A DNA stretch of 57,631 nt. It comes from Candidatus Curtissbacteria bacterium. Its GTDB lineage: Bacteria; Patescibacteriota; Microgenomatia; Curtissbacterales; GWA2-41-24. The first letter of the stretch is position 1, and each line of letters begins with the position of its first letter. Shown piece by piece: positions 1 through 19,747 of the stretch. The notes under the pieces are model-generated. The model made no database searches. It was not told the DNA's origin and saw only the letters and a list, made by a program, of their open reading frames with translations. The translations under genes and the position numbers were made by a program. Location of the stretch: NCBI GenBank assembly GCA_024654445.1, contig JANLHP010000017.1, positions 210,524-268,154 on the forward strand. The letters are read 5' to 3'.

Positions 1-121
1 ATGTTGTCGACATAACAAGTGCGACTGTGCCATTTTTAAGAATCACCAGGTTGTCGATGATGTCCTCGATGTCCAGATGTGCCTGAGTTGAAGCTGTGGT
101 TTTGGACTGTTTTTTAGCCAT
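1..121 (-). CDS. partial CDS (5' end only, continues past left edge); hypothetical, positional candidate for the VirB4/PrgJ-type ATPase that usually follows a PrgI-like gene
   Basis: ATG at 119-121 on minus strand, open to window edge: MAKKQSKTTASTQAHLDIEDIIDNLVILKNGTVALVMSTT...; too short for the ORF track. Confidence 0.4.
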   Translation of the reverse strand, partial: MAKKQSKTTASTQAHLDIEDIIDNLVILKNGTVALVMSTT

Positions 122-236
122 ATTGGTTTTAATTTCTAATTTAAAATTTCTAATTTTTAATCAAATTCTAAAATCTAATTTTTAAAACATTAATTCATTG
201 AAAATTCATTAAAAATTTCAAATTAAGAATTAAAAA

Positions 237-1580
237 TTATGAATCATTGTTTAGTTTTATTTCCATTGGGTTGACGATTTGCCCGTTTAGGTCTATTTGA
301 AGTGTGTGTGGAGTCTGTTGGGTTTGAGACTCTATTTCTACTGTGTAGGCGCCGTTTCGGAGCGGGGTAGTGGAGAGAAATTGGCCATTCTTGTTGGTTT
401 TTAAGGCTCTTACAGGTACGCCATCGCGATCCTTAACGATTAGGATGACATTTTCTATGGGAGCCCCGTCATTGTTCTTGATAAATCCAGAAACTACGTT
501 TGGTGTTGAGCCTATCGGGTTTGCGATAGGATTTTGGACAGGTGGCGTTGGTGGCACAATACTTTGCATAGTTTCTTGAGGAGCCGCAGGCGTGTTTTCA
601 ACTGGCGCAACGGTGGTTTCTTGAGAGCCTTCTTCGCCACCAAAGCGTTTTTTTAACTCCTCTGAAATTTCAAAGCGTCTTTCTCCCAATATCGGAAGCT
701 TGGAAAGATCAAAGCCTTCTGGGGGCGCGAAGTGGAGTTTTCTGGTGCGAGTCTTTCCGATGCCATGTATCAGCCTAGTATTCTCGCCTGGGGGTTTAAT
801 AGAAATTACGTTTTCGATAGTGAAGTTTGCTTCTGACGCGAGCCTCGTTTTTACGTTCGGTGGAGCGATATTTACCGTTTGGTGAGGAGGTTCTTGCTGC
901 TTTAGCCTCTTTTCGAGGCCGGGGATTGCGTATGGCTTGGCGAAATGGGCGATTTTGGGGCTGCTTGTGGGGGCTGCGTGTACAGATGTAGCTTCGCCCA
1001 ACTGTGGAAGAGATTCCGGGGCAAGAAATTGTCCTTCTTCACGAGGTTTTGTCGGCCAGGAAATTACGGGGGGCAATTTGCCAGTAAGCGTTTCTTGGGT
1101 GGGAATTTGAGGGCTAAGGCCGAGCCTTTGAAGCGCGATTTGTTCTTTCGTATCTAAAGGAGAGGATTGTTGTTGGGGCAGGGTTCTCAGGTACGCGTCG
1201 AGGCGCTCTCTGCCTTGGGCGGTGACAGGCTCCTGGTTTAAGTCCTGGTTTGAAACTAAAGAAGTGACGACATTGAGATATTCGGGCACCCTCGTCTCTT
1301 TAACCCAAACTCTTTGAGTAGGAGAAGTGACCGCCTTTATGAAATCTACGAGCCATTTGTCTAACGGCCTGCCTTGAATGGGAATGAGCGCTGAAAAGAG
1401 GGCAAAAAGGCCGATTACGAGGGCAAGCGGAAGCCTAACTACGGCTGGAAGTGGGGAAAAAAAGGTTAAAACGGCGACGGACATCGGGATTGCCAAAGTT
1501 ATAAATTGGCGGATGGTCAAATTCCCAAAGAGCTTGAATTGGAATGAAGCTATATGCTGCGGGACAGGATGTTGTTCCAT
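237..1580 (-). CDS. PrgI-family T4SS membrane protein with long Pro/Gln-rich linker and C-terminal carboxypeptidase-regulatory-like beta domain
   Basis: N-terminus VPQHIASFQFKLFGNLTIRQFITLAI + two TM helices matches the PrgI pattern; C-terminus VVSGFIKNNDGAPIENVILIVKDRDGVPVRALKTNKNGQF resembles CarboxypepD_reg-type repeats. Confidence 0.65.
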   Translation of the reverse strand: MEQHPVPQHIASFQFKLFGNLTIRQFITLAIPMSVAVLTFFSPLPAVVRLPLALVIGLFALFSALIPIQGRPLDKWLVDFIKAVTSPTQRVWVKETRVPEYLNVVTSLVSNQDLNQEPVTAQGRERLDAYLRTLPQQQSSPLDTKEQIALQRLGLSPQIPTQETLTGKLPPVISWPTKPREEGQFLAPESLPQLGEATSVHAAPTSSPKIAHFAKPYAIPGLEKRLKQQEPPHQTVNIAPPNVKTRLASEANFTIENVISIKPPGENTRLIHGIGKTRTRKLHFAPPEGFDLSKLPILGERRFEISEELKKRFGGEEGSQETTVAPVENTPAAPQETMQSIVPPTPPVQNPIANPIGSTPNVVSGFIKNNDGAPIENVILIVKDRDGVPVRALKTNKNGQFLSTTPLRNGAYTVEIESQTQQTPHTLQIDLNGQIVNPMEIKLNNDS

Positions 1581-1874
1581 GGGCGTAAATCGGTTAATCG
1601 CTGAATCGATAAATTGCTAAATAGATTAATCGCATAATCGCTGAAATTGTCACTGTGTTGTGGCTAGAACGATTGAACAGTTAAACGATTCACCAATTTC
1701 ACAAATTTAACGATTTAACTATATATCAATGTAACGATTAAACCTTAACATATGAAACAAGGTGCGAATAGTAGAACATTTAGTCTCAAAAACCTGACAT
1801 TTTCACAAAAATTTACCTTTTCAGAAAACTCAGCCAAATCAGAAAACCGGGCCTCAATCGGAAAATCGGAGAAA

Positions 1875-2029
1875 AGGTCTCCCTGAGTTCAAAGGTGAAA
1901 TCCTTCGTGATTTAAGGTGGCATCCTTGCTTGCCCGCCTTTGGAGGGAGTTTTTGAAAGGTGCCCTACCTTAAATCTAAAAAGTACTTCCAGGTATTTAA
2001 GGTCTCACCTTAAAGAAGGGTGAGACCTT
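1875..2029. repeat. mosaic repeat block: degenerate A hairpin, short C element (1910-1975, reverse orientation), perfect A hairpin AAGGTCTCACC-n9-GGTGAGACCTT (1999-2029)
   Basis: read directly; C element ATTTAAGGTGGCATCC…GGTGCCCTACCTTAAAT. Confidence 0.8.
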
Positions 2030-2186
2030 CTTTAAGACTTTACTGACACTCTGACCATCTGACTTTCTGAGTATTCCGAGTTTTTTGGGTGTCTTTTCCT
2101 GTCCGGATTCGTGTCAGGGTTAAGTCAAGCAACTATAGGACAAGTCGGTATAATTGGCCAAAGTGAAGGAGCACTTAGAAATATAA

Positions 2187-5100
2187 ATGAGTATGGAACT
2201 TGATATAATTCAACTAATGCCTGAAGGAACCTCCCGTAGAAAAGAGGACGAGTATCCTCAAGACGAGCTGAAAAAAGACGCCCAAGCTGAAAAATCGAGG
2301 GCTGAGGCTAAAGCACGTGAGAAGGATAAAAGAGAGGCTGAGCGCAAAGGCAGGCAAAAAGAGAATGAGGCGCAGGTAAAGAACAACGAAGACGCTGCTT
2401 CTCAGGCACAAAAAACTCCCAAAAAACAAGAAGAGGAAGAAGAACGAGTAGTTGTCTTCAAAGACATGAGGGTTGCTTCAGAACTTTCAAACGCGGTTCG
2501 CAATAAGCAAGATATTGTTGCTTCAGAAGACGAACTTCAATCCTTAAGAAATATTCTGACGGTTGTTGGCAATGATTTGAAAGATGTCGAAAAGATGTCT
2601 GTCGGTCAAATGTTGGTTGCCGTTCAAGAAGTTGCGCAGGATGAGCGTATTGTTGTGGCTGACGCTGAGGAAGAGGACTGGCTGAATGAGAAGGGACAAC
2701 CCGAAAGAGTCGCAGAGGAGAAAGAAGTGCAGCAGTTGATAGAGACTGCCAGAAGTAAGGACGAAGTGAAGCTCGATGCAGAAAAAGTCGAAAAGTATGT
2801 GAAGGTCTCGACAGAAAAAGTAAGTAAACCCAGGGCTAAGGCCGCAGTACAACAAGCGGAAATTGATCCTGACAGTCGTGCGCTCAAGCTCGAGGGCGAG
2901 GGTGGGACAACGTATGTCGTTGCCACATCCAAGCGACTTTACAACTTAGAACATCGCCAAGTAGAAGCTGTTTTCAGGTCGCAGGGCGTCGATGTCAAAG
3001 TGCCGAGTGCTGAAAGATGGAATAGGGCGAGCGGTTGGGTGCGTCAAAAATGGTTACACAAACACGACATTGTTAACACTACCGAATTGCCGGAGGTGGA
3101 TGACGAGGGACGATTTATATACAAGGACAGAGGACACGGGATGACTTTTGTGGTGGCCAAGGATGGTACCAAAAAAGGACTTATTTATGGTCAACGAGGC
3201 CGAGATATAGACTTTGACGCGCTTAATGGACTGGTAGCCCGAGCCGGGATCGATGTTGATATAGAAAAACCAGAGGGTTGGGAAGATATGTCTTTTGATA
3301 GAAAGAAAGACTTGTTTAGAGAAAAGGAGATCTTCTTGCCTTTACCCGCATCCGGTGGTGCTGGTGGGGGTGTTATTTACTATGACACGCAAGACTTAGG
3401 TGTGGAGATGGTGGCGGGTCCTCCAGGTACTCCACCCAGGCGTCAGTTGAATCACCAGGAGGCAACCACGCTTTTGATGAGAAGGCTAGTTGATCTGGAT
3501 ACTGACGAGCTGACGCAACCCGCTGCGAATGTCGATAGACAAGAAGTTTTTGAAAGGCTGAGAGATGTTTCGGGGGAATATTATGACATTCTCCGTAACA
3601 CCCGAGGTATCCCTTACGAGCGTTATAAAGGTACTGTAATTGAAGTTTCGCTAATTGAGCTTAAAGCTTTAGAGTCTCTTGAGCGAAATATGGGCACTGC
3701 AGCTTTCGCTACCTCCGGTTATGAGGCTGAACGACAAGCACTTTATAGAGAGTTAGCGGACATTGGGTCTACAGAGGAAATTCTTCATAGAATAATTTAT
3801 ATAAAAACAGAGCCTGTTCCTGGGCCTCCAACGCCCGCTCAACATGACGAACTTCAAGCCCTGATTGGAGCAGTCGAATTTCAAGTCGGGACTGCTGAGA
3901 ATTTGGCAGCAGCTAAGGGTGAAGGATTCAGGTTGGTGAACAACGTGATAAAGGGTCTGGAAAAGCAGGAAGTTTTAACGCAAAAGATTCCGAACCAGAG
4001 AGATGTCCTTGATGACACAATTTCTGAGACACGAAGGAAGGATTTGAGGGCTTTGTTAAAGGAGATGGGTGGGCATTTTAAGGAAGTAGAGAGGCAGATC
4101 GGAGTGAAGGCAAAGAATTCTCTTTACATTCCCCTCAATGAAAAAATAGATGAATTGGAAAAGTTGGCAAGTATGGGAAGCACTAATAAGGACGAGATCG
4201 ATGAGCAGCTATATATTTTTGCTTTAAGTTTGCCTTCACCTCGCGGCACAGAAGGACTTTTGGAGTGGCGCGCGGCTATTTCTACAGAAGGGGTTGAAAG
4301 GAACATTTTGCGACAGGCGGAGGTGGGTGTACCTCGCGCTTGGAGTGAATCGGAGAGAAACGCTGAAAATAACTTTAGATACATAGAATCTTCGGACCTT
4401 TCCCAGGAAGAAGTGCGTGCCGCTCTCGGAAACGTTGTCGCAATTTCCGAGGCATTGTCGCGTATCAAAGGAACTGAAAGGATTGACGCTCTACGAATGA
4501 AAGAGAAGATAGACAAGCAAAAACTCGCGGTAGAAGGTAAATATTATCAAAGAAAATTGACGTGGAATGGCGACGGGAACCCGGAGAAGTTTATTCAGAT
4601 TTTTGAAGGTGACCAATGGAATGATGAAACGAGGGGTGTTTTTCAATCGAGGTTTGACAGAGATCATGAAGGGAACGAATACAAAGGGACTGATAACTTC
4701 GGCAACGAAGTAAAATTTAACATGGCTGATTTGTCCACAACGACTTGGTATAGACAACTTTATCGCGACCACGAGGATTTTAATTTGATAGAACCTTTGA
4801 CAGCTTTAAACATCTCGGCACAAATAGTACGGGGTGACGCTACGTGTAACCAAATTGAGGGGATGCTTCGGAGAAGGCTTTTGGATTCGGAGATAACGAG
4901 ATTGAACGAATTAAGGCAGATTTTTAAGAATGAGGTTACACCCGAGGTTTCCTTAATTCCGAATCGTCCTCCCGGTCCCCCTTCCGATGCTGAAATTGAC
5001 AAGTATTGGGCTGACCCGAAAAATGCCGAAGGTATTATCTCTGCTTGGCATAAGAGGACTACTCTTGTGGGTGCGCATGGCAAGGATGATAGTGTTGCCA

Positions 5101-6398
5101 ATGTTGCTCTTGCTCAGCAAAAAAAGGACGTTTGGAAAGGCAGAATACATCAGGATTTAGTAGATCGCTTAAGGAACGAATTCCACATAAGTAACGAGAC
5201 CATAGAAGAATGGGAAGAAGCAGGTTTACTGGATCAGGCTGTAAATGTGGGCTATTGGGAAGGGTACATGGATTCGGCTTTTTCGGAGTTTGGACTTGTG
5301 AGGATTTTTGACAGGAGGAAAGTGTTCTATCGTTTGGATAATGCAAAAATTATGGGAATACCGCCTGCGGGTGGAGGACCTGCTGGGTATGAAAATATGG
5401 ACAACGTTGTCCATTACCAGGTGTATTCTTCGGTCTACGGAGAAGAAAGCAATATTTATAACCAACGAAGGATAGATTTTGGTCCTGAATGGATTCTCGA
5501 TGAACTTAGGGGGAAAACAGGCAAAAACGTAGACAGGGATTTGGATACAAATACGGTATTATGGGAAAAAATGCTTGGCAAAAGAAGGGGTATGCTTCAC
5601 AACAATAGGATGTCAGTAAAGTACACAAGCGATAAATTCCGAGAATCGAAAGATTTTGCGCCAAAACTTTTAACAGCTAAAGCCAAAGAATATGGCTATA
5701 GTACTTTTGAGGATTTTAAGAAACTATTAAAGGATACGATGAATAATTTGGACAATGTAAGAACTTTGGACATCAACGATGATGAATTTGATGAATCCTG
5801 GGCAAGAGGGGCCGCTCTAGCGGAGTTATTCGAGGACGGCTTTCTCTCTTTTGAGGGAATTAATTGGAGCGAAGTCTACAATAATAACGACACAAACGTT
5901 TCCAAATTCAACATGGGTGACTGGACGGGCGATCGTAAATCGACGTGGGATTTTTATGGGACAGAAGGTTTGCAACGCTACCTGAAAACGCCGAACACTA
6001 AGATTTTCTTCGATGTTATGAGTGAAAAGTTCTTCTATTCCAAGAGGGAAAATCGGCTTAAGTCTTGGTACAAAATAGTGCTTCCTGCGCATTTCGAAAT
6101 TGGGGATCACTGGAAGGAATGGTATAGCTCGAACTACAACATGACTAGCGCCGAGAAGGAAGAGATGATCGAAGAGGCCGTTTCTATCAACCGATTGGAA
6201 AAAGAGGCTGAGAGTGCTTTTAAAGCGCAGAATTTAGGAATACTTCCGGTTCGCAGAGCATTTCAATTTTATGAAACATGGAGAATAATAGCTGAAGAGA
6301 CAATCACTAAAAGATCTTTCAATCTTTTCCTCAATTTCTTACTAGAAATGTTTAAAGGAATGTTTGGGCAATCAATGGCTCAGCTAGAGGGAAAATAA
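2187..6398 (+). CDS. 1403-aa hypothetical protein, no recognisable domain; K/E-rich N-terminus, no signal peptide or TM
   Basis: single uninterrupted ORF, AGGAG at 2167-2171, TATAAT at 2149-2154; all antisense ORFs are short. Confidence 0.85.
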   Translation: MSMELDIIQLMPEGTSRRKEDEYPQDELKKDAQAEKSRAEAKAREKDKREAERKGRQKENEAQVKNNEDAASQAQKTPKKQEEEEERVVVFKDMRVASELSNAVRNKQDIVASEDELQSLRNILTVVGNDLKDVEKMSVGQMLVAVQEVAQDERIVVADAEEEDWLNEKGQPERVAEEKEVQQLIETARSKDEVKLDAEKVEKYVKVSTEKVSKPRAKAAVQQAEIDPDSRALKLEGEGGTTYVVATSKRLYNLEHRQVEAVFRSQGVDVKVPSAERWNRASGWVRQKWLHKHDIVNTTELPEVDDEGRFIYKDRGHGMTFVVAKDGTKKGLIYGQRGRDIDFDALNGLVARAGIDVDIEKPEGWEDMSFDRKKDLFREKEIFLPLPASGGAGGGVIYYDTQDLGVEMVAGPPGTPPRRQLNHQEATTLLMRRLVDLDTDELTQPAANVDRQEVFERLRDVSGEYYDILRNTRGIPYERYKGTVIEVSLIELKALESLERNMGTAAFATSGYEAERQALYRELADIGSTEEILHRIIYIKTEPVPGPPTPAQHDELQALIGAVEFQVGTAENLAAAKGEGFRLVNNVIKGLEKQEVLTQKIPNQRDVLDDTISETRRKDLRALLKEMGGHFKEVERQIGVKAKNSLYIPLNEKIDELEKLASMGSTNKDEIDEQLYIFALSLPSPRGTEGLLEWRAAISTEGVERNILRQAEVGVPRAWSESERNAENNFRYIESSDLSQEEVRAALGNVVAISEALSRIKGTERIDALRMKEKIDKQKLAVEGKYYQRKLTWNGDGNPEKFIQIFEGDQWNDETRGVFQSRFDRDHEGNEYKGTDNFGNEVKFNMADLSTTTWYRQLYRDHEDFNLIEPLTALNISAQIVRGDATCNQIEGMLRRRLLDSEITRLNELRQIFKNEVTPEVSLIPNRPPGPPSDAEIDKYWADPKNAEGIISAWHKRTTLVGAHGKDDSVANVALAQQKKDVWKGRIHQDLVDRLRNEFHISNETIEEWEEAGLLDQAVNVGYWEGYMDSAFSEFGLVRIFDRRKVFYRLDNAKIMGIPPAGGGPAGYENMDNVVHYQVYSSVYGEESNIYNQRRIDFGPEWILDELRGKTGKNVDRDLDTNTVLWEKMLGKRRGMLHNNRMSVKYTSDKFRESKDFAPKLLTAKAKEYGYSTFEDFKKLLKDTMNNLDNVRTLDINDDEFDESWARGAALAELFEDGFLSFEGINWSEVYNNNDTNVSKFNMGDWTGDRKSTWDFYGTEGLQRYLKTPNTKIFFDVMSEKFFYSKRENRLKSWYKIVLPAHFEIGDHWKEWYSSNYNMTSAEKEEMIEEAVSINRLEKEAESAFKAQNLGILPVRRAFQFYETWRIIAEETITKRSFNLFLNFLLEMFKGMFGQSMAQLEGK

Positions 6399-6458: not shown

Positions 6459-7940
6459 TTATTCTTCGCGCGGTCCGGGTCTTGTGTGCATTTCCTTTCC
6501 ATACATACCCCTGCTATAAATTCTCTCAAATGCAGCTTCTCTGGTCGCGTGGGCTCGTGCTTCACCGACTGGTTTATACGCTTCTCTAAATGGTCTGGCC
6601 GCAAGACTACCCGCAGCTCCAACAGCTGCTACGCCGCCCCCGATATTCAATCCGCCTTTGACTCCAAACCTATCTTTTACAAGTTGCGCCGCGCTCGGGG
6701 TCATCAGCAAGAATCCCAAGCCGATTAAACTCCCTATATTATTGAGGCCAAGGTTACCAGAAAGAAGGGGAAATTGTCCAATGTCGCCCGGTTTAAACGC
6801 GGGTTGGTCGTTTATGCCTCCTAGGTTACCAACGCCGGAAAGTATGCCCGCGAAAATGAACATTATCGCGACAACTGGAAAAACGGCTATATTGGCGCCT
6901 AGCTGCCTGAACCATTCTCTGGCGCCGTTATTACCAGGCATTGCCTGGACCAATAGTAGAAAAGGTCCGAAAACTGTAAGGATGATAATGGTTACGTAAG
7001 CCATCAAAAGCATGAAGAAAACCCGGAACATGATGAAAAGCATCGCTATTGCTAAAATTATGCCGGCTATTGACCCTCCAAACATGCCGACCACCTTGGA
7101 CAAAAATCCATCTCCAAATAATTGACTAATAAGGTTTTGGATAGCCGTAAAAACTTGATCGAATATTCCCGTAAGTGAGCCCATGACTACGCTAAACACG
7201 TTCGATTTAACTACGTTTTGAGCATTTTCGTTAACAAGGCCCGCTTGTTCAAGAGTAGTTATTACAACGTTTAGAAAAACGAACATTAGGTCTATCATGA
7301 GGCCAACTATCGCGTAACTGAAGGTGACAAGAATTAAGGCGATAACGATTCTCGGTATGGAATCTTGAACTGTAGCGACTGCCTGCGGGGAAATGTGTGT
7401 GCGGAACATGACCATAAAGCCAATGATGACAAAAACTATCACGAAGCCCATGTAGGAAATATTGCGAAAGACGGTCCATAAATTCTGGACTGGTGTTAAG
7501 GCTTGGTAGCCGATTCCCTGGGCGTAGGCCGGCTGAATCGGGTTAAACCTTTCTATTTGTTGCGCGAAGTATTGAGTGCCGGAAGCGGGGGGAGTCGTGA
7601 TTATGCCTGCGACCATTCTGCCTGTTACGTTGAGCGCTCCGGTGGTTTTTGTAACGTCGTTTGTTTCTGAGTGGAGCTGAGAATGACCTGTCAAAAGCGT
7701 GAGCAAGCTGTCGGCAGTTCCCGCGATTTGGTTTAAGTTGAATATTTTATCGTCGTAAACTTGTTTAGTTACAGCCGTTGTGTTGAGTTCTCTGATGCTT
7801 TCAGCTGCGTCGAGAGGTGTTTGAGCGTAGACTGGCGACAGAGTTAAGAGAATAGAGAGTAGAGCTAAAAGCGCAAAAATTACTAAAGCGATTGACAATT
7901 TACGATTAACAATTAACGATAAAACGGCAGTTATTTTCAT
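6459..7940 (-). CDS. polytopic membrane protein, VirB6/TrbL-like
   Basis: signal-like N-terminus (…LTLSPVYAQ), then at least 6 hydrophobic helices and a Gly-rich tail; context within T4SS-like locus. Confidence 0.5.
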   Translation of the reverse strand: MKITAVLSLIVNRKLSIALVIFALLALLSILLTLSPVYAQTPLDAAESIRELNTTAVTKQVYDDKIFNLNQIAGTADSLLTLLTGHSQLHSETNDVTKTTGALNVTGRMVAGIITTPPASGTQYFAQQIERFNPIQPAYAQGIGYQALTPVQNLWTVFRNISYMGFVIVFVIIGFMVMFRTHISPQAVATVQDSIPRIVIALILVTFSYAIVGLMIDLMFVFLNVVITTLEQAGLVNENAQNVVKSNVFSVVMGSLTGIFDQVFTAIQNLISQLFGDGFLSKVVGMFGGSIAGIILAIAMLFIMFRVFFMLLMAYVTIIILTVFGPFLLLVQAMPGNNGAREWFRQLGANIAVFPVVAIMFIFAGILSGVGNLGGINDQPAFKPGDIGQFPLLSGNLGLNNIGSLIGLGFLLMTPSAAQLVKDRFGVKGGLNIGGGVAAVGAAGSLAARPFREAYKPVGEARAHATREAAFERIYSRGMYGKEMHTRPGPREE

Positions 7941-9476: not shown

Positions 9477-10844
9477 TTATTCGGCGCATGTCGCTTCGAG
9501 GCCACACCTTGGACATTCTGTTGTGCCAGATCCATAAATGATTATGGTGCCGCAGCGAGGGCAGGGGAAATCGCTGTCGTCTTCGCCAGCATCATTTGTA
9601 GAAGGGGCAAAGTCGGCGGCGGATTGAGCACTGATTGCTTTTGCGAGTCTCGATATGGCAGGGGTGAGACTGAAGCCTTTTTGTTTCCCCGGGCAACCTC
9701 GTCTGCTTGTTTTTGGCATGCGTCTGCCCTTAATTTGGATTTGTTCTTCGATGTCTTCATCGTTTGTGCGAACGAGGTTTCTTGAGGTCCACAAAATTTT
9801 TGCTTTTTCTTGCTTGAACTTTGTAAAAGCATCCTGTTTTACTTTTTTTACTTTTTGTTTGATCTTCTCAACTTCTTCGTCGAAAGTGTTGAGGGTAGTA
9901 TTCCAGATCATTTTGAGTCGCTCTATTGCTAGGGGGGTATCGGCGAGCGTTCGGATGTAGGCTAAAAAATAGGGAATGCAGGGTTCCAATGCCTCTTGAA
10001 GTAGCTCTGTATTTTTTGCCCGATTGTCGAGGGCGAAGTTTTCCAGAATTTGGGGAAGATTAAATTTAGTTTCGGCAGGTCGGGAGAGCATATAGGCAGC
10101 GTTTAAAGTTTGCTCTTGATTTGGTCTTTGGTAGCCTGGGTCTACTTGGCAAAGCGCATCTAAAAACCCGGCATTGGAGTGGTTGGAGTGGTATTTGTTC
10201 GCGGTGATGGTTTCACCATTCTGTTCTATAACGTAAAAAATGTTGTCATGGTAAAGGATGTCGTCGTCCTCGCCTTTTGGTTCCTCTTCTTCGCCGTGTT
10301 TGCAACGTTCCGATCTTGGAGAGGCGACAACTAAGGTGACATCTCTCCTCTCTGCTAGAAGCCTTATTATTTCTTCGAAACCATCAATTTCTGCTAACTC
10401 TCTTTCGACTTCGTTGCTGCCGTTTTCTTCCAGAAATTGTTGACCCTTTTTATATCTTTCGATAACGGGTAGGGGATAATCGTCGCTCCAGAGTTGACTC
10501 TCGTCGTCCAGGTAGTAATGAAAAGTGCTTCTTTCGACCGCCAGACGCTCGCCTAGAGTCTTTTCTAAGTTGTGATAGGTTCTGTCGTTTGTTTGATCAA
10601 GAAGGCTTTCATACTCGGTCTGGGGAATTTTCCCGCGCAGAGGTTGGAGGTCGAGATAATCCTGGATGTCGTGGCGAGGGTTGTAAGCTAGAATTCCTTC
10701 AAAATCTTCGGGTATATTCCAGCGGACCGACTCGCGGGTAACAAGGTGAGACCTTGTCATACAGTGCCATGCGGTCCTCGTCCTTCGGACTGCGGGCCTA
10801 AAGGTCTCTCCTTGTTGATTTAGGTTGCTTGGAATTCGTTCCAT
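9477..10844 (-). CDS. hypothetical 455-aa protein with acidic patch and C-terminal CPxCG…CPxCG zinc ribbon
   Basis: ORF; AGGAGG 8 nt upstream of ATG 10844; C-terminus FPCPRCGTIIIYGSGTTECPRCG. Confidence 0.75.
   Translation of the reverse strand: MERIPSNLNQQGETFRPAVRRTRTAWHCMTRSHLVTRESVRWNIPEDFEGILAYNPRHDIQDYLDLQPLRGKIPQTEYESLLDQTNDRTYHNLEKTLGERLAVERSTFHYYLDDESQLWSDDYPLPVIERYKKGQQFLEENGSNEVERELAEIDGFEEIIRLLAERRDVTLVVASPRSERCKHGEEEEPKGEDDDILYHDNIFYVIEQNGETITANKYHSNHSNAGFLDALCQVDPGYQRPNQEQTLNAAYMLSRPAETKFNLPQILENFALDNRAKNTELLQEALEPCIPYFLAYIRTLADTPLAIERLKMIWNTTLNTFDEEVEKIKQKVKKVKQDAFTKFKQEKAKILWTSRNLVRTNDEDIEEQIQIKGRRMPKTSRRGCPGKQKGFSLTPAISRLAKAISAQSAADFAPSTNDAGEDDSDFPCPRCGTIIIYGSGTTECPRCGLEATCAE
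10743..10813. repeat. A-type stem (AAGGTGAGACCTT / AAGGTCTCTCCTT) whose loop holds a B module; lies inside the first 34 codons of CDS 9477-10844
   Basis: AAGGTGAGACCTT-GTCATACAGTGCCAT-GCGGTCCTC GTCC ttcg GGAC TGCGGGCCTA-AAGGTCTCTCCTT. Confidence 0.75.
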
Positions 10845-11208
10845 TAAAAAACCTCCTATTTAGTCTCGAGGAGGTTTACAAGTCGCTTTAGACCCGCAAT
10901 GCTAATGAGGATCGCAAGCTTCGCTTTTTGGGCGAGTTATCCTGCTCGGGACTATCCTGCGCTAAAGCTTCGGATAGCAAGCTTTTTTAGCTAAGGATTC
11001 CAATCCATTGCGGTATTAGGACTTATACATTGCTTACTAAAGCTTTGTAATTACCTTTGCGGCACAGTTCCGGAGTCAAACCGGATTCCCCGCTTGCCCG
11101 CCTAAATTGAGTCTTTGACTCTATTTGGCGAGGCGATGGAATTTAGATTGTAAATCTAGATTAGCACTGGGGGTGTGAGGAATCAATAGCCCTCGTTTAC
11201 TAAAGCAG

Positions 11209-11441
11209 AAGGTCTCATCCCTGACAGGGTGAGACCTTAAATACTCGGGAGTAACTTTTAGATTTAAGGAATTTTTTAAAATTCCTTGCGGTCCTCGACT
11301 AAAGTCTGCGGGCCTAAAGGTAGGGCACCTCTTCGAGTCTGAGCAATGAGGCTTACCTCAGAGTCGATGACTTTTGAAGACTCCCTCCGTCGCTCTATTA
11401 GAGCAGAGCTCTGGCGAGCAGGCAAGGATGCCACCTTTAAT
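11209..11441. repeat. mosaic block: A hairpin (11209-11238), AAGGAATTTTTTAAAATTCCTT palindrome (11266-11287), B module (11288-11317), full-length C element (~11315-11441)
   Basis: read directly. Confidence 0.8.
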
Positions 11442-11445
11442 CATT

Positions 11446-11937
11446 TCAGCAGCCGTCCGGAAGGATGTTGAAGTTGGGGTTTTGCTGCTTTAGTTCAAAA
11501 TTTAGAATAAACCTAACCGGAAGAGTGCAGAGGTCTTGCTGTTTGAGTTCAAAATCCAAAAACCACTTTTGCGCGAGAACTCTGGATTCAATTGGATTTT
11601 GGTTGACCATTACGAAGAATATATCCGGAGTAGGTACGTAAACAATCCTGAAATCTTGAGATTCAAATAATACGATGTCGCCGTTTTGATTTGATAATTC
11701 CGAAGCTATAATTTTGTCCCTTATCGGTTTTATATCTTTGTTTTCCTGAACAGTTTTTTCTTTAGGAGGGATTATTACTTCTGGAGATAGAGCTGAAGGA
11801 TTTGGTGATTCTAATGGAGTAGGTGACTTCTTGTCGCGTGCCGAAAAGACGCTTAAGAGTATTAAGCCAATTAGGACAAAAATAACCGCAATCGTGAACA
11901 GTGGTGATCTTTGTCTAATCGCGTTTAAATTTAACAT
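11446..11937 (-). CDS. hypothetical single-pass membrane protein (163 aa)
   Basis: N-terminal TM LFTIAVIFVLIGLILLSVF; start overlaps stop of upstream gene (11931-11937). Confidence 0.65.
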   Translation of the reverse strand: MLNLNAIRQRSPLFTIAVIFVLIGLILLSVFSARDKKSPTPLESPNPSALSPEVIIPPKEKTVQENKDIKPIRDKIIASELSNQNGDIVLFESQDFRIVYVPTPDIFFVMVNQNPIESRVLAQKWFLDFELKQQDLCTLPVRFILNFELKQQNPNFNILPDGC

Positions 11938-14048
11938 CCTTTTGCGATACCGCTTTTCCTTGCTACTTGCCAGTAGCAGAAAGGCGTAATGGATTTGTTA
12001 TAGTTGATGGCATTTGTTATTTGAACTCGCCAAGGAACATCACCGTGATCAAATGTTCCATTTTTGCCCCTTCCCATTTGAAACAATCCCCAGGCTCCAG
12101 CTGTGTCTGGTGTGTCGTCTGCCCCTGCTTGTTGATGGGGGCGGTAAGCATTTGGTCCGTAACTGCTTTCTCCCGCGATGATTGTTAGCCAAGTAGAAAA
12201 ATTCGCCGGATCCTCGGCTTGGACCATTTGGGACATTAATTCGAAGCTGAAATCACAAGCCGGATCGCCGAAGTTACCGAGAGGATTATTGAGCGCGTAC
12301 TTGCCCCCGCAATTGTCAGCGGTAACGGGATGGCTTCCCGGGGCACTTTGCCCGAAATCACTGCAGCCCGCGCTTCTTAGTGTTGGATCTTGCTGGTCAA
12401 CAGGAGTCAGGGAAATATTAACTGTTTGCTTGCTGCAGTTTACTGTGCCCACGCCCCTTGTTTTTGGGTCGTCATTTGCCGAAGCACCTTGTGTTTGACC
12501 CGGTTGCTTAAGACCAGGAAGATATTTTCCACCGATTAAGCTATTAGGTATGAAGTAAGAATAAACACCTGGATTTTTTTTATCCGAGTAGCTCAAGTTG
12601 TTCCAAGCTTCAGCTGTCCAGGGTAAGTTAAAAATGGGCCAAATCCTGACAGTAATGTCGCAGTCGTACCGGTCAGAGGTTCCCTGTATGAGGGTACAGT
12701 CTGGTCCTGGCACGGGGTATCGGTTGAGTATGGGCATCTCGTTGCCCCCTTCAGTTGATAATCCGGGCCACCGAAGTGTAAAAGTGCAAACGACATTGTC
12801 ATTGCCTTCTTCAAGTTTGTTGTTATCTACTATATTTTTATAGGGATTGTCACACCTTACATTCATGCCATCGATTTGGTTTATGCGATCAATTTCACCG
12901 GGAGGGAATGGGCAATAGGGTGCCTGACCCGCTTTGGGGTCCTTGCTGGTAATGATACAAGTGGAATTTTCAGGCACTACTTCGGCAAATGCGGGCCTGA
13001 TGAGATCTAGCCTTTCCATTGTTATCTGTATTATTTTGCCGAGGTTTTTAGCTAATCCTTCAGATGTTTTGGTGAGCAGATTTTTACAGAGGTCGATGGT
13101 TGCCGCGAAGATATTGCCGGAGTCTATAGAGCTGGTTTGAACCTCTTTGCATCGTGGATCATTCGGATCTAATTCTGGGTTCAAGATTCTGTGGCACTTG
13201 TCTCTTTGGGTGTCCAAAGGAACAATCAGGCGGTTGAGCTGGTCGGAAATATGGGCGGTACGGAAATGTTCTGGGAGGGTGATGTTTATTTTATAAGACT
13301 GAAAAAGGCACTGACCCTGTTCTAAGCGCTTGATATCTTTTTGTCCGACTGCTGATTTAAAGTTGATAAAACCTTTATGGAATTCGCTATAGGAGGTTGG
13401 GATTTTTTCCCAATATCTGCCCCAAGTGTTAGGGTCTTGAGTTTCTCCTACAGGTTTTGGGTGGCCGAAATCCGTTACCATCTGAAAAATAGTCCTGGGG
13501 TCGCCTCCTTTAATGTCTGAAATTTGAGTTTCGGCTTCTGGTAAATTGTGGCCGGCTTCGGAAGAGACGTAATTAATGTATTTAATTTTTAAATCGTCGA
13601 TCAAAATTTTATCTGAGAGTTTTTGTGCAGGGCCGTGGTAGTTATTCAAATCTTCACCATTGAAGCTGGTTATATCAGAAAGTTGATGCGCAGGATCCTG
13701 GAATTTTCCTCCCCCAAAGTCGGAGTTTTCGGGAGCAAAGACTGCTTGAAGTTTTGAAAAGTCGACTAGGAATGGGAAGTCTTTGGATTCAAGGGGAATG
13801 TATTTCTCGTTGCTTACAGGTATAGTTTGTGCCTGAACATTGCGTAGAGAGTAATTTAATATTATTGGGGCTTCGCCGTCTTCGGCAATTATCGGATTTT
13901 CTGATAAATCTTTTGCGTCTTTTGGAAACGCACATGGTTGAGGGTCGGGAGCAACGGGCGTTTGGGCGGATGCCGAAGAGGGTATAGAGAATAGAGTTAA
14001 GAGGAAGATAAAGATAATTAACTTTAAAATCTTTGGCAGCGCAGGCAT
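11931..14048 (-). CDS. secreted 705-aa protein with C-terminal lytic-transglycosylase (SLT/VirB1-like) domain
   Basis: signal peptide …SSASAQ; C-terminus IIAGESSYGPNAY…AWGLFQMGRG…AINYN has the E-S / GLxQ / Y pattern of SLT domains. Confidence 0.6.
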   Translation of the reverse strand: MPALPKILKLIIFIFLLTLFSIPSSASAQTPVAPDPQPCAFPKDAKDLSENPIIAEDGEAPIILNYSLRNVQAQTIPVSNEKYIPLESKDFPFLVDFSKLQAVFAPENSDFGGGKFQDPAHQLSDITSFNGEDLNNYHGPAQKLSDKILIDDLKIKYINYVSSEAGHNLPEAETQISDIKGGDPRTIFQMVTDFGHPKPVGETQDPNTWGRYWEKIPTSYSEFHKGFINFKSAVGQKDIKRLEQGQCLFQSYKINITLPEHFRTAHISDQLNRLIVPLDTQRDKCHRILNPELDPNDPRCKEVQTSSIDSGNIFAATIDLCKNLLTKTSEGLAKNLGKIIQITMERLDLIRPAFAEVVPENSTCIITSKDPKAGQAPYCPFPPGEIDRINQIDGMNVRCDNPYKNIVDNNKLEEGNDNVVCTFTLRWPGLSTEGGNEMPILNRYPVPGPDCTLIQGTSDRYDCDITVRIWPIFNLPWTAEAWNNLSYSDKKNPGVYSYFIPNSLIGGKYLPGLKQPGQTQGASANDDPKTRGVGTVNCSKQTVNISLTPVDQQDPTLRSAGCSDFGQSAPGSHPVTADNCGGKYALNNPLGNFGDPACDFSFELMSQMVQAEDPANFSTWLTIIAGESSYGPNAYRPHQQAGADDTPDTAGAWGLFQMGRGKNGTFDHGDVPWRVQITNAINYNKSITPFCYWQVARKSGIAKGC

Positions 14049-14101: not shown

Positions 14102-14133
14102 AAGGTCTCACCTTGATTCAAGGATGAGACCTT
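14102..14133. repeat. A hairpin AAGGTCTCACCTT-gattc-AAGGATGAGACCTT
   Basis: between pilin 14170 stop and transglycosylase start. Confidence 0.8.
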
Positions 14134-14169
14134 AAATCTAATAATTTTAACGATGTATCGATTTAACAA

Positions 14170-14448
14170 TTACTCTGGAATTCTGACAGTAGTGACGTCT
14201 ACGCCTGTGACCCTTCCAATAAGCTGGAGAATTAGCCAGGACGCGACAACTAAAACAATACCGATTACGGCATAGGTGAGTATGCTTTGCGCCTGGCCGA
14301 CGTTTTTAGGATCGCCGCCCGAGGTGATGTATTTAAAACCGCCGACAATAAGCATGACGAAAAACGCGATCCCTGCCGCCGGAGCGAGCAAAGATATTAT
14401 GCGTTGCAAGACGTCTAGGATATCCGTAATCTGGGCTGGGCCGTCCAT
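14170..14448 (-). CDS. T4SS pilin-like (VirB2/TrbC-type two-TM hairpin) protein, 92 aa
   Basis: FFVMLIVGGFKYITSGGDPKNVGQAQSILTYAVIGIVLVVASWLILQLI module shared by six neighbours. Confidence 0.7.
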   Translation of the reverse strand: MDGPAQITDILDVLQRIISLLAPAAGIAFFVMLIVGGFKYITSGGDPKNVGQAQSILTYAVIGIVLVVASWLILQLIGRVTGVDVTTVRIPE

Positions 14449-14483
14449 ATAAACCTGTAGTTATCGTCTGCCTTGCTAACTTT

Positions 14484-14900: not shown

Positions 14901-14917
14901 ATATTTATCTCACCTCC

Positions 14918-15427
14918 TCATGGACTTGATCTTGTCGGTAGCTGAAATCCTCCTGAAATAATTTCTATACCAAAGAAGGTTTCTACCAATTTGATTATAG
15001 CAAAAGCACCCAGCACAATTACCAGTCCCAGAAGACCCCAATATATTCTGCTCCAGGCGGTTGAAATGTTTTTGGGGTCACCGTTCGCGAAGATAAAGCT
15101 ATAGCCCGCGAATATCATCCAAATCACGGCGATTACGAAGGCGACGATTATAAGAAGCCAGATGCCGTTTCTGATGAAACCCGCGATGAAATCGGAAACG
15201 CTTTGGTTGCCAATATCTACCACTCCTGAGGGGGCTTCTATCGTTCCGATTCCGGGTTGGACATTCCCTGGCGCTTGATCAATAGGGCCGCGGGGAGCAT
15301 CCTGATCACCGACGCCGTCTTGCGGAGGCGGGAAGGACGGGTCACCTTCTCCTTGAGCGAAAACCGTGGTCGATGAGAAAAGGAAGAGCAGGAGAGGTAA
15401 GGTAAGTGTGATTAAAAGCTTTTTCAT
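14918..15427 (-). CDS. T4SS pilin-like protein with signal peptide and Pro/Gly-rich ectodomain, 169 aa
   Basis: signal …TTVFAQ; VIWMIFAGYSFIFANGDPKNISTAWSRIYWGLLGLVIVLGAFAIIKLV. Confidence 0.7.
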   Translation of the reverse strand: MKKLLITLTLPLLLFLFSSTTVFAQGEGDPSFPPPQDGVGDQDAPRGPIDQAPGNVQPGIGTIEAPSGVVDIGNQSVSDFIAGFIRNGIWLLIIVAFVIAVIWMIFAGYSFIFANGDPKNISTAWSRIYWGLLGLVIVLGAFAIIKLVETFFGIEIISGGFQLPTRSSP

Positions 15428-15438
15428 TTGCGTTTGTT

Positions 15439-15522
15439 CAAGGATCTCACCTCTTCGAGTCTGAGCGATGAGGGCTTGTCCCTCAGAGTCGAAGACTTTC
15501 GAAGACTCAAGGAGAGACCTTG
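15439..15522. repeat. hybrid element: A-type arms (AAGGATCTCACC … GGAGAGACCTT) enclosing the internal core of element C
   Basis: core TCTTCGAGTCTGAGCGATGAGGGCTTGTCCCTCAGAGTCGAAGACTTTCGAAGACTC ~90% identical to cores at 11330-11385 and 17926-17980. Confidence 0.8.
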
Positions 15523-15528
15523 AAGCTT

Positions 15529-15837
15529 CTAAAACTGAATGTTTGTACCCAAGAAATACTGTACAGCTTTTAGGATAACAAATGCCAGAGCGGTTACAAC
15601 AAGGCCGACAACGGCATAAGTTATCATCGCGCCTGCCGCCGACAACTTTTTGGGGTCTCCACCGGATGTTACGAGTCTGATTCCGCCAATAATTATGAAT
15701 ACAACAGCGATTACACCAGCTATACTTGTTAGGATAAGAATGAGGTCGCTTGCCAGGCTGCCTATGTCGGAAAAGAGTCCGGCTGGCTGAAAAATGTCAC
15801 TGTTAATTCTAAATTCTGCAGCGTATGTGTCAAACAT
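15529..15837 (-). CDS. T4SS pilin-like protein, 102 aa
   Basis: VVFIIIGGIRLVTSGGDPKKLSAAGAMITYAVVGLVVTALAFVILKAV. Confidence 0.7.
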   Translation of the reverse strand: MFDTYAAEFRINSDIFQPAGLFSDIGSLASDLILILTSIAGVIAVVFIIIGGIRLVTSGGDPKKLSAAGAMITYAVVGLVVTALAFVILKAVQYFLGTNIQF

Positions 15838-15879
15838 GGACTAATTGTTAATTTCTAATTTTTAATTTTAAAAAATCTG

Positions 15880-15969
15880 ATTTAAGGTGGCATCCTTGAG
15901 TCCTCGAGAGGTGCCCTACCTTAAATCTTAAAAGTTCAAGGATGAGACCTTAACAAGGATCTCACCTTG
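15880..15969. repeat. minimal C element (TIRs only, 15880-15926) plus A-type hairpin (15937-15969)
   Basis: ATTTAAGGTGGCATCC-ttgagtcctcgaga-GGTGCCCTACCTTAAAT. Confidence 0.8.
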
Positions 15970-15991
15970 AACACCAGATTCTCCGAGTTTT

Positions 15992-16624
15992 CTACGTTAT
16001 CGTCGTTCCCAAGAACAATCTGTTAACTACTTGTAATATAGCAAAAGCCAAAAGAATAATGACAAAGCCAATTATGGCGTACATTAGCCTTCCTCGTGCC
16101 TTGCCAACGGCTTCTGGGTTGCCCCCGGACGTGATGAATTGAATACCAGAAAATATTATGAATAGGACTGTAATCATGCCAGCGATGGGGAGGACAACTT
16201 TGAGCGCTGCTTCAACTAAAGTTGGAACCAAATCCTGCTCTTTTTTAAATTTCAAATCGTCGACAGCGATATCTTTTAGGCAGTCACTGAAGCCTTTACA
16301 TGGTTGGGACGAGGTGCCCGAACCGGGTTGTTGTGTGTTCCTGCCACCCGGGTCTGGTTGAGTATTCCCGTCGTCCTGATCTGGTGGGGAGGCGGTTTTT
16401 AGAAAACACGCGGGATGTCCGTACGAATCTATCTCTTCTTCAGTAGCCGAGTTGCAGCCCTCCGGTGGTCTGTCTCGTCCGCATCGGGGGCCGCCCGTAG
16501 TTACATTATGTACATATGGATCTGAGCAATGATTGGCAGAGACAGGGTTCGAGAGGACGGAAAGTGGAGCCAAAATAAGAAAGATAAAAATTAAAATAGT
16601 GAGAGAAAGTTTTTGCCAGATCAT
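15992..16624 (-). CDS. T4SS pilin-like protein with Cys-containing ectodomain, 210 aa
   Basis: signal/TM N-terminus; VLFIIFSGIQFITSGGNPEAVGKARGRLMYAIIGFVIILLAFAILQVV. Confidence 0.7.
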   Translation of the reverse strand: MIWQKLSLTILIFIFLILAPLSVLSNPVSANHCSDPYVHNVTTGGPRCGRDRPPEGCNSATEEEIDSYGHPACFLKTASPPDQDDGNTQPDPGGRNTQQPGSGTSSQPCKGFSDCLKDIAVDDLKFKKEQDLVPTLVEAALKVVLPIAGMITVLFIIFSGIQFITSGGNPEAVGKARGRLMYAIIGFVIILLAFAILQVVNRLFLGTTIT

Positions 16625-16625
16625 T

Positions 16626-17768
16626 TTAAAAACCCAAAGTAGGGCCCAAGATACTCGAACCGATAAATCGTAGAATTAGCACGCTGAGTATTAAAAAGAT
16701 CAAGCCCGCAATAGCAGCGACAAACATGTCTTTTCCCGCCGTTAACTTTTGTTGGTCTCCAGATGAGGTGATTACTCTTATCGCGCCAATTGACATGAGT
16801 ATCAAAGCGATTCCGCCCGCTACGCCCAATGAGATTGTTAAGAATCTCTTAATAAAACCGGCGGGGTCGGTGGGAATGTCACCTACTGCCGTATCGCAGA
16901 CATTGTTTTGGCAAGGATTTTGGCCGGAGATTAGGTTTGATGCGTCTTCTTTATTTGGATCGTTGGTAGGCGGAAGAACTTGCCCACCCGCAGGGTCTAT
17001 CTTTACTACGAACCTTTTATACGTAAATCCCCCGGAACATTCGCGGGTGTCCCCAGATATCGAATGCTCGTCAACTTTCTCGTTAATGTCGATTACGTAT
17101 GTCCCAGCTTCTACAGGGGGGAAAGAAACTCTTGTAGAGCCTGTTTCTGGGATCGTGAAGCATCTTTCCTGTTTAAATCCGCCTCCGGTTTGAGTTTTCA
17201 TAACAGCTTGGTAATTATTGCGGTCGTCGGGGCCTGGTCTTCTGCCACTTGCATCGACGAACGTTTGGTCCGAGGGCGTGAAGGTTCCCGAAGAAGTAAC
17301 CGTTACGTTTATCGATAGGTATTCGTGTTTTACCTTAAAGGCTGCTGTTTGAACCTCGCTATTACTGCCTTCGGGGTAAAGCCTAATCCTATAAGTATGT
17401 CCGCCGTGAAAATAGTCGTCGGGGCCACAGTCCTGGTTTATTTTAACGGCATCCTGGCCGTCTCCGCATACTCTTACAGATATCTTATTCTCTGCGTCAG
17501 ACCTTACATCTTTTCTAGCCCAAGCGTCATTGACGATTATCCGGTTGTGAGTTATAGACTCGCAGTGATGTGGGTCAGACAATACACAAAGGTCATAATC
17601 TTTATTCGGCTGTAATCCCGAAAAGACAATGTCTACGAAAGGAACTGTTTCGTTAAGTTCTGTAAAGGTGGGAGGAAATATGATTTCTTGAGCGTGGGCG
17701 GAATTGACTTGGGCTACAAGCGAGGTTGCGAGGACGGCTAGTCCGACAAAAAGTTTCTTGAAATTCAT
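16626..17768 (-). CDS. T4SS pilin-like module fused to ~300-aa Cys-rich secreted ectodomain, 380 aa
   Basis: signal …NSAHAQE; C-terminus LILMSIGAIRVITSSGDQQKLTAGKDMFVAAIAGLIFLILSVLILRFI. Confidence 0.7.
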   Translation of the reverse strand: MNFKKLFVGLAVLATSLVAQVNSAHAQEIIFPPTFTELNETVPFVDIVFSGLQPNKDYDLCVLSDPHHCESITHNRIIVNDAWARKDVRSDAENKISVRVCGDGQDAVKINQDCGPDDYFHGGHTYRIRLYPEGSNSEVQTAAFKVKHEYLSINVTVTSSGTFTPSDQTFVDASGRRPGPDDRNNYQAVMKTQTGGGFKQERCFTIPETGSTRVSFPPVEAGTYVIDINEKVDEHSISGDTRECSGGFTYKRFVVKIDPAGGQVLPPTNDPNKEDASNLISGQNPCQNNVCDTAVGDIPTDPAGFIKRFLTISLGVAGGIALILMSIGAIRVITSSGDQQKLTAGKDMFVAAIAGLIFLILSVLILRFIGSSILGPTLGF

Positions 17769-19732: not shown

Positions 19733-19747
19733 TGCTAGAATTAATTA

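Follow-up and report, generated by a model that had tools for sequence, protein, structure and literature searches.

We analysed a 57,631-nt stretch of DNA (the window) from Candidatus Curtissbacteria (contig JANLHP010000017.1, positions 210,524 to 268,154), the first 17,768 nt of which likely encode most of a type IV secretion system (T4SS), chromosomal and non-conjugative, of a Curtissbacteria-like Microgenomatia (Patescibacteria) genome. The locus shows the features of a Patescibacteria-type T4SS: a TrsD-like protein, a PrgI/VirB3 protein, an array of divergent PF18895 pilins, no relaxase or coupling protein with the cluster, and a chromosomal context. An earlier note on this DNA had read it as an envelope-spanning, Gram-positive-type T4SS with a VirB2-like array as found in Patescibacteria, and this reading is borne out, as the nearest homologues belong to Curtissbacteria and orthologous loci reach a TrsD-like protein, VirB4 and Peptidase_M23. 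Its suggestion of an undescribed system has to be given up, because Patescibacteria T4SSs are already published (PMC10633639; PMC12102498; review PMC12857230); the locus adds a member to a described system and is no new one. Its chief remaining interest lies in conserved, unannotated partners, above all the convergent 1403-aa giant encoded next to the VirB6-like gene.

An open reading frame (ORF) map placed every ORF where the earlier note had put it. Positions 1-17768 hold 13 minus-strand ORFs, a 14th cut at the left edge and one large plus-strand ORF (Table 1), arranged as two minus-strand units with the 1403-aa gene between them on the opposite strand. In reading order, the first unit comprises six divergent VirB2-like pilins with two transmembrane (TM) segments each (17768-14170), the 705-aa and 163-aa proteins, an ORF-free gap of about 600 bp, three cytoplasmic proteins (455, 109 and 372 aa) and a 493-aa polytopic, VirB6-like protein. 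Beyond the plus-strand 1403-aa ORF the minus strand resumes with the second unit, which begins with the 447-aa PrgI/VirB3-family protein and runs into the TrsD-like ORF at the left edge; orthologous loci add a VirB4 ATPase and an M23 peptidase. Two overlaps are signs of an operon: the 372-aa ORF begins within the stop of the 109-aa ORF, and the 705- and 163-aa ORFs overlap where they meet.

For synteny, a scan of one genome per species gave 80 loci from Curtiss-, Gottesman-, Shapiro-, Woese- and Levybacteria (later counts use 79-85 loci), in which we called ORFs and ran iterative searches with each window protein; counts for Curtissbacteria-type loci cover those with at least 8 kb of flank. 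The common order is a pilin array of 2-10 genes, a large exported protein, the VirB6-like gene, a large opposite-strand ORF, PrgI, TrsD, VirB4 and a peptidase. Among Curtissbacteria-type loci, pilins (mean 5) and the 455-aa protein were found in 12 of 12, the 705-aa protein in 11 of 12 and the 163-aa protein in 7 of 12, while 1403-aa and TrsD genes each occurred in 15 of 16 and PrgI in 14 of 16. The proposal that the orphan ORFs are syntenic, lineage-specific components thus holds for three of the five (1403, 455 and 163 aa), which co-occur in Curtissbacteria loci together with the 705-aa protein; it fails for the 372-aa ORF and is marginal for the 109-aa one.

Table 1. Coordinates of the T4SS locus and the adjoining SpoIID gene (window positions).
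Position	Strand	Feature	Remarks
1..121	-	TrsD-like / 'TraC-like' N-terminus, first 40 codons	From orthologue N-termini; gene continues beyond the window
237..1580	-	PrgI/VirB3-family membrane protein, 447 aa	Pfam PrgI; Pro-rich long extension; C-terminal beta-sandwich
1581..2186		Intergenic, 606 bp	Separates the divergent PrgI operon and 1403-aa gene
2187..6398	+	Orphan of 1403 aa (X1403), highly charged, no signal peptide	Convergent with the VirB6-like gene, 60-bp spacer
6459..7940	-	Divergent VirB6-like polytopic protein, 493 aa	Topology, position, weak matches
8007..9125	-	372-aa Pro/Ala/Glu-rich cytoplasmic ORF	Internal duplication of ~75 aa
9125..9454	-	109-aa cytoplasmic ORF	Sporadic association with T4SS loci
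9477..10844	-	455-aa cytoplasmic orphan (Z455)	C-terminal CPxC...CPxC zinc ribbon
11446..11937	-	163-aa bitopic protein	TM 9-36 and ~100-aa ectodomain
11931..14048	-	705-aa Sec-exported protein	N-terminal ~350 aa conserved; rare C-terminal lysozyme/SLT-like domain
14170..14448	-	VirB2-like T4SS pilin, 92 aa	PF18895 E 2e-12, 47.5 bits
14484..14900	-	VirB2-like T4SS pilin, 138 aa	PF18895 30.8 bits, cut-off 26.6
14918..15427	-	VirB2-like T4SS pilin, 169 aa, Sec signal	TrbC 26.4 bits, cut-off 27.9; shares 55% core identity with the 138-aa pilin
15529..15837	-	VirB2-like T4SS pilin, 102 aa	PF18895 36.0 bits
15992..16624	-	VirB2-like T4SS pilin, 210 aa, Sec signal and Cys-rich N-terminal extension	PF18895 47.7 bits, residues 131-200
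16626..17768	-	Leading 'long pilin', 380 aa	Sec signal, ~280-aa Cys-rich ectodomain, C-terminal pilin hairpin; PF18895 20.4 bits, below cut-off
18080..19732	+	Secreted SpoIID-domain protein, N-terminal coiled coil	PF08486 E 1.6e-18; peptidoglycan lytic transglycosylase family

Not every ORF that had been given a T4SS name matches a profile hidden Markov model (HMM) of that family: the PrgI protein and the pilins do, but the VirB6-like and SLT-like proteins do not. The pilins are the clearest case. A C-terminal two-TM hairpin is present in all six array ORFs, four of which exceed the cut-off of the T4SS_pilin family PF18895 (30.8-47.7 bits against 26.6). The other two, at 14918-15427 and 16626-17768, are clear paralogues, with core identities to the remaining five of up to 55% and of 20-36%, respectively (20-55% across the array), and each yields 151-262 phmmer matches to pilin ORFs of related loci; the six VirB2/TrbC-like two-TM proteins of the earlier note are thereby confirmed. 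The first gene is the longest of the array (at least 200 aa) in 22 of 35 complete arrays. It usually encodes a 'long pilin' of 200-560 aa (for instance in L001, L009, L011, L048, L058 and L084), made up of a signal peptide, a large Cys-rich ectodomain and the pilin hairpin, and is a candidate tip or adhesin subunit.

At the other end of the locus, the 447-aa protein matches Pfam PrgI (PF12666) at residues 5-91 with 38.8 bits against a cut-off of 27 (E 1.4e-9), has two TM segments at about 23-71 and has orthologues in 42 loci; its C-terminal CarboxypepD_reg-like beta-sandwich reaches 32.0 bits against a cut-off of 32.3. A PrgI-like gene followed by a truncated ORF that leaves the window, as originally described, is therefore correct. 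The PrgI/VirB3-family proteins here (also at 16350-17858 in L001 and 16824-18377 in L003) are 260-540 aa long, compared with the usual ~100, and join the PrgI domain to a long Pro-rich linker and a CarboxypepD_reg-like beta-sandwich. In one Curtissbacteria relative (L001, 15958-16350) a 130-aa ORF of the 23S_rRNA_IVP family stands between the 1403-aa homologue and PrgI.

The left-edge ORF had been raised as a possible VirB4-like ATPase, whereas orthologous loci identify it as the N-terminus of a TrsD/'TraC-like' protein. It starts MAKKQSKTT and aligns with the N-termini of 322-326-aa proteins in L001 and L003 (71% identity over 35 aa, 57.5% over 40 aa). These proteins bear the PF26593 TraC-like domain (related to the VirB4 N-domain; 'TrsD' of PMC12102498) and are directly followed by a 606-610-aa P-loop_TraG/DUF87 VirB4 and then by a large Peptidase_M23 protein. 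Since its 40 residues match TraC-like N-termini that precede VirB4, the truncated ORF is not the ATPase, which by comparison with the orthologous loci would be expected one gene further to the left. No Walker A motif occurs in any ORF of the region inside the window, and therefore none of the orphans is a hidden ATPase.

For the 493-aa protein, hydropathy indicates 5-6 TM segments behind a signal peptide and a ~110-aa ectodomain, followed by a cytoplasmic tail. This topology fits VirB6, and as a polytopic protein with at least five TM segments inside a T4SS cluster it resembles TrbL/VirB6 in layout. The family is present in all 84 related loci at a fixed position between the pilins and PrgI-VirB4, and the closest homologues of the window protein come from Candidatus Curtissbacteria. 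The protein itself has no Pfam, NCBIfam or PDB sequence match; TrbL (PF04610) is matched by two of 53 family members (best E 5.5e-4), and in a search of PDB chains with the family profile TrwI of R388 ranked second with a weak E of 0.22. An hhalign comparison with six VirB6 proteins of the MPF_T class aligned one P...F..W helix region at P 0.0027, ten column-shuffled controls reaching no better than P 0.18, and the profile was not significant against the single sequence of TrwI. An AlphaFold2 (AF2) model built from a 25-sequence alignment had a mean pLDDT of 57.6 and a pTM of 0.28 and returned zero Foldseek matches, which has no bearing either way on kinship with VirB6. The VirB6/TrbL-like label of the earlier note is thus supported by polytopic topology, gene position and weak in-register matches, but not by a significant HMM match. 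In L013, L019 and L022, as well as in P0106 and P0118, the VirB6-like proteins reach 810-845 aa through two beta-rich Ig-like ectodomains placed right after the signal peptide; these insertions are extracellular extensions, not cytoplasmic ones.

The 705-aa protein shares its N-terminal part with proteins of 603-1601 aa that occupy the same position in 26 loci, and has no Pfam, NCBIfam or PDB match. Only four homologues of its last 142 residues turned up among 5.8 billion clusters, and all five sequences keep E627-S628...AWGLFQM...NAINYN (numbered as in the 705-aa protein), in the forms (C/G)ES..(P)..., AWGL(F/Y)QMGRGKNG and NAI(N/G)YN. The domain thereby carries the Glu-Ser, GLxQ and YN motifs of SLT or family-1 lytic transglycosylases. 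Of the five domain sequences, one weakly matches SLT PF01464 (E 0.093) and one a PHROG transglycosylase family (E 0.026). Against Slt70, MltC, MltD and EmtA of E. coli, hhalign gave P 7.5e-4 and set the catalytic Glu-Ser and the GLxQ in register with ES...G(L/I)(M/W)Q; against the single sequence TrwN the profile was not significant. A strict regular expression for SLT recognised the 705-aa protein yet missed all four genuine E. coli enzymes, and was dropped in favour of hhalign. Judged by these motifs, the C-terminus is a probable but unproven lysozyme-like domain with Glu627-Ser628 as candidate catalytic residues, so that of the secreted protein with C-terminal SLT motifs the Sec signal and the invariant motifs stand, but a significant SLT HMM match is missing. 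The 163-aa family, found in 18 loci, follows directly in the operon, and we infer from its position that it is a candidate for a VirB8-like subunit.

The earlier note had listed five ORFs (1403, 455, 372, 163 and 109 aa) as free of recognisable motifs; none falls into a Pfam or NCBIfam family, but the 455-aa protein bears a generic C-terminal zinc ribbon. In all 12 Curtissbacteria loci with upstream flank it is encoded just ahead of the VirB6-like gene, Cys384, Cys428, Cys431 and Cys447 are invariant, and its family profile matched only a generic zinc ribbon among PDB sequences. Homologues of the 109-aa ORF were found only in four distant Levybacteria-like loci (L058, L075, L084, L085), where the gene adjoins PrgI. 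These loci are rearranged, in the order VirB6-like gene, convergent gene, ~440-aa gene, pilins, ~630-aa minus-strand gene, 109-aa homologue and PrgI. The 372-aa ORF is unique to this genome, with no homologue in 85 loci; its self-alignment scores 116 against 32+-6 for shuffles, and it occupies an apparent variable slot between the 455-aa and VirB6-like genes. If the orphans were unrelated neighbours or a variable insertion region with no role in the apparatus, only PrgI, TrsD, VirB4, the VirB6-like protein and the pilins would matter. The distribution of the 372- and 109-aa ORFs, the presence in several loci of other small unrelated ORFs between the 455-aa and VirB6-like genes, and the lack of a T4SS domain in any orphan all speak for this. 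Yet nearly all Curtissbacteria loci keep the 455-, 705-, 163- and 1403-aa families in the same place and orientation even though identities are 25-40%, the convergent-gene arrangement described below recurs in 78 of 79 loci, and the ORF overlaps (372/109 and 705/163) indicate operon membership, which makes it improbable for the set as a whole.

The 1403-aa protein consists of a disordered, lysine- and glutamate-rich (KE-rich) N-terminus, an all-alpha body and a hydrophobic or amphipathic C-terminal helix. It has neither a Pfam or NCBIfam match nor a signal peptide, and its body contains no TM segment. An exhaustive HMMER search with residues 230-1403 found the family in only 78 representative clusters among 1.84 billion proteins; a word-indexed search with the full-length query had returned only the query itself, probably since the KE-rich N-terminus swamped the word candidates. 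In a confident AF2 model from a 35-sequence alignment (pLDDT 85, pTM 0.68), a small alpha/beta N-domain precedes a long all-alpha body with one beta insert. Foldseek searches of this model against PDB and BFVD gave no match at E<=1e-3, the top rows being generic HEAT/ARM alpha-solenoid or long-helical proteins at a TM-score of about 0.1; a few rows for phage 'internal virion protein' were not read as meaningful.

Large genes in the same place are a general feature of these loci: in 78 of 79 loci the next ORF of at least 200 aa beyond the VirB6-like gene is on the opposite strand. The encoded proteins are 600-1800 aa long, about 30% charged and mostly without TM segments, and ten representatives showed no Pfam domain. 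They could not be treated as one family, as blastp splits them into many clusters, and hhalign (95%) with an iterated C-terminal HMM joined the Curtissbacteria cluster only to two small ones (L031, L032, L046), via the last ~140 aa. The most hydrophobic 17-mer falls within the last 60 residues in 31 of 69 convergent proteins, where about 4 would be expected by length alone. We tentatively regard the 1403-aa protein and its positional counterparts as a cytoplasmic platform that is tethered to the membrane and docks on the VirB6-like protein; it would correspond, as a detached unit, to the ARM-repeat domains that Southlakia epibionticum carries fused to its VirB6-like proteins. This reading is favoured because of the constant position, the C-terminal hydrophobic helix and those ARM-repeat fusions. 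A bolder version, in which the large convergent proteins form an unrecognised but obligatory T4SS module of nearly all Microgenomatia, a detached and membrane-tethered counterpart of the ARM-repeat domains on the VirB6-like proteins of Saccharibacteria that would stand in for the missing coupling protein, gating or receiving pilus cargo on the cytoplasmic side, strikes us as unlikely.

Several points weigh against the picture drawn so far. The VirB4 gene itself lies outside the window, VirB6 homology is weak (best P 0.0027) with an unusable structure model, and likeness of the 705-aa C-terminus to SLT stays at motif level. No VirB8 homologue was found by sequence, in that the 163-aa family profile (16 members) retrieved no PDB match at all, VirB8, TraM and PrgL chains included. 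The resemblance of the 1403-aa protein to ARM repeats is a fold-class impression only, given HEAT/ARM top rows at E>1e-3 and a TM-score of about 0.1, and outside Curtissbacteria the convergent proteins have no detectable homology to it save for the last ~140 aa in two small clusters. It is also the fastest-evolving gene of the locus, conserving 0.07 bits per residue relative to its orthologues, roughly tenfold less than the VirB6-like (0.82) and PrgI (0.78) proteins.

The speed at which the 1403-aa protein evolves fits a substrate better than a scaffold. It and its convergent counterparts could be T4SS effectors that are delivered into or onto the host and recognised by a conserved C-terminal module. 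The missing signal peptide and TM segments in the body and the fold without known relative would suit such proteins, as would the restriction of similarity between clusters to the last ~140 aa (hhalign 95%), which resembles the C-terminal secretion domains of T4SS substrates; XVIPCD and BID are known domains of this kind. However, it is unusual for effectors to occur as about one gene per locus in a constant place, as seen in 78 of 79 loci, the C-terminal hydrophobic helix of many members points to an anchor in the membrane of the producer itself, the locus lacks a coupling protein to recruit cytoplasmic substrates, and Southlakia fuses ARM-repeat domains to its VirB6-like proteins. On balance we consider the effector role rather unlikely and keep to the membrane-tethered platform as our tentative reading.

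Whether the locus could instead move DNA was judged by its gene content and surroundings. A screen of window ORFs of at least 380 aa for relaxase, coupling-protein and VirB8-11 domains detected no relaxase, coupling protein or VirB8/9/10/11, as had been noted before, and in the same ORFs across 57.6 kb no integrase or replication gene was found; relaxase and coupling-protein domains were likewise absent from the gene tables of L001 and L003 within +-10 kb. VirB4, PrgI and TrsD are homologous to MPF_FATA conjugation machinery, and relaxases occur in a few Patescibacteria genomes (PMC12102498), so the locus might be thought the transfer module of an integrated conjugative element or a plasmid remnant. 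Besides the missing DNA-processing genes, the flanks consist of housekeeping genes, the GC content of the locus is even with its surroundings, and several Microgenomatia groups, named as candidate phyla in the records, share the gene order and the SpoIID and bPH neighbours, which fits vertical inheritance. We therefore consider a role in conjugation very improbable and retain the reading as a chromosomal, non-conjugative T4SS.

Divergently upstream of the pilins, 18080-22653 on the plus strand encodes a SpoIID protein, a bPH_2 membrane protein and a 677-aa single-TM protein. The SpoIID gene occupies this position, divergent from the pilins, in 7 of 12 Curtissbacteria and 8 of 34 other loci; it is linked to the T4SS locus and lies outside it. 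The trio recurs there in many Microgenomatia loci, for example L020, L033, L045, L048, L072 and L078, and may belong to the T4SS as a wall-remodelling unit. Further on, the context is that of an ordinary chromosome (22839-23209; 25672-29145; 29749-32695), with a transfer-messenger RNA gene, five tRNA genes, DnaG primase and the sigma factor RpoD, and the remaining window also encodes cell-envelope enzymes. At 50001-56000 the GC content drops to 0.36-0.38, compared with 0.41-0.48 elsewhere, over glycosyltransferase and sulfatase-like genes, and this block may be an acquired envelope-glycan island. Within the T4SS locus, the intergenic region in front of PrgI is presumed from the gene layout to hold divergent promoters. 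A promoter and terminator scan gave site counts at chance level, and the 600 bp inside the operon (10845-11445) contain no ORF of at least 60 aa on either strand and no Rfam match. Many public records of metagenome-assembled genomes (MAGs) with Curtissbacteria-type T4SS loci (L007, L008, L010, L015 and others) are titled 'uncultured Gammaproteobacteria', and a few Nevskiaceae, Clostridia or Pseudomonadales; these titles look like taxonomic mislabels.

Drawing on established T4SS knowledge, we suppose that PrgI, TrsD, VirB4 and the VirB6-like protein would form a Gram-positive-type membrane translocon. VirB4 would extract pilin hairpins from the membrane and polymerise them into a tube, which the long first pilin may cap at its tip, while exported wall-cutters (the 705-aa protein with its SLT-like C-terminus, the adjacent SpoIID and, downstream, the M23 peptidase) would open the peptidoglycan. 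The tube would then contact or penetrate a host bacterium and carry macromolecules other than plasmid DNA. A preprint from 2026 on the first cultured Microgenomatia strain describes tubular connections into the host and the acquisition of host RNA (bioRxiv 10.64898/2026.06.21.733656). Import of host material is a possibility that we hold with reservation, and export of proteins is somewhat more doubtful; uptake is rated slightly above export in view of the missing coupling protein, the auxotrophy of the lineage and the RNA acquisition described in the preprint. A tube serving adhesion only appears unlikely. Epibiotic growth requires the Patescibacteria T4SS in the single species tested, and the system may serve these ultrasmall bacteria as a tube into the host cytoplasm. 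The locus yields a concrete list of conserved Microgenomatia parts, including a VirB6-like family that surveys called scarce there, together with a leading 'long pilin' and conserved orphans (the 1403-, 455- and 163-aa proteins and the 705-aa N-domain) that can be tested as subunits, adaptors or substrates.

With the R388 Trw and Agrobacterium VirB systems (MPF_T) the locus shares the two-TM pilin hairpin, TrbC/VirB2 (PF04956) being matched here below threshold. Its VirB6-like family shows a weak alignment to TrwI within one conserved P...F..W helix region, and the sequence similarity to VirB6 is not significant by usual standards; the locus is without VirB5 and VirB7-11. With MPF_FATA systems (pCF10 Prg/Pcf, pGO1 Trs) it has in common PrgI (VirB3), a TrsD-like protein, VirB4, a VirB6 analogue, one or more cell-wall hydrolases and the lack of an outer-membrane core (PMC12102498). 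Those systems possess a relaxase, a coupling protein and surface adhesins and no VirB2 pilin, whereas six pilins and no DNA-processing parts are found here.

One of the closest known systems is the T4SS of Southlakia epibionticum ML1 (Saccharimonadia), where Wang et al. (2023) found the T4SS genes and pilins of SEML1_0006-0019 to be essential (PMC10633639). That cluster encodes PrgI, an unknown protein of ~300 aa, VirB4, a large peptidase, a lysozyme-like protein, six PF18895 pilins and an NTF2-like protein, has no relaxase or coupling protein, and includes two essential VirB6-like proteins, SEML1_0011 and SEML1_0013 (998 and 1088 aa), with C-terminal ARM-repeat domains (PMC10633639). Compared by description, both loci share the block of PrgI, a ~300-aa TrsD-like protein, a ~610-aa VirB4 and a large peptidase, six divergent PF18895 pilins, VirB6-like proteins recognised only by remote or structural methods, lytic enzymes in the cluster, the lack of a relaxase and coupling protein, and a chromosomal position. 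They differ in that Southlakia fuses ARM repeats to its 998- and 1088-aa VirB6-like proteins, whereas here a 493-aa VirB6-like protein accompanies a separate, convergent 1403-aa all-alpha protein. Southlakia's NTF2-like (VirB8-like) protein has a twin-arginine translocation (TAT) signal; in place of that protein only the 163-aa bitopic orphan is present here. The Southlakia pilins are transcribed divergently from the other cluster genes, while here the array is co-directional and upstream. Neither the 455-aa zinc-ribbon protein nor the N-domain of the 705-aa family has a counterpart in the descriptions of Southlakia, which were compared in place of sequences.

At the level of the phylum, the survey by Quinonero-Coronel et al. 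(2025) describes a VirB4 clade related to MPF_FATA, TrsD, PrgI/VirB3 and VirB6 without a relaxase, and VirB2 arrays of 2-11 genes that are frequent in Microgenomatia, with a mean identity of ~25% (PMC12102498); a 2025 review lists Patescibacteria T4SSs (PMC12857230). The component set here is alike and likewise free of a relaxase. In Microgenomatia the survey calls VirB6 homologues 'scarce', which it puts down to divergence, and finds VirB3 mostly away from virB4 (PMC12102498), whereas a VirB6-like family is present in all 84 of our loci and PrgI directly precedes TrsD-VirB4. Genes without profile matches are left grey in that survey (PMC12102498), and the conserved orphans of the Curtissbacteria locus are among such genes.

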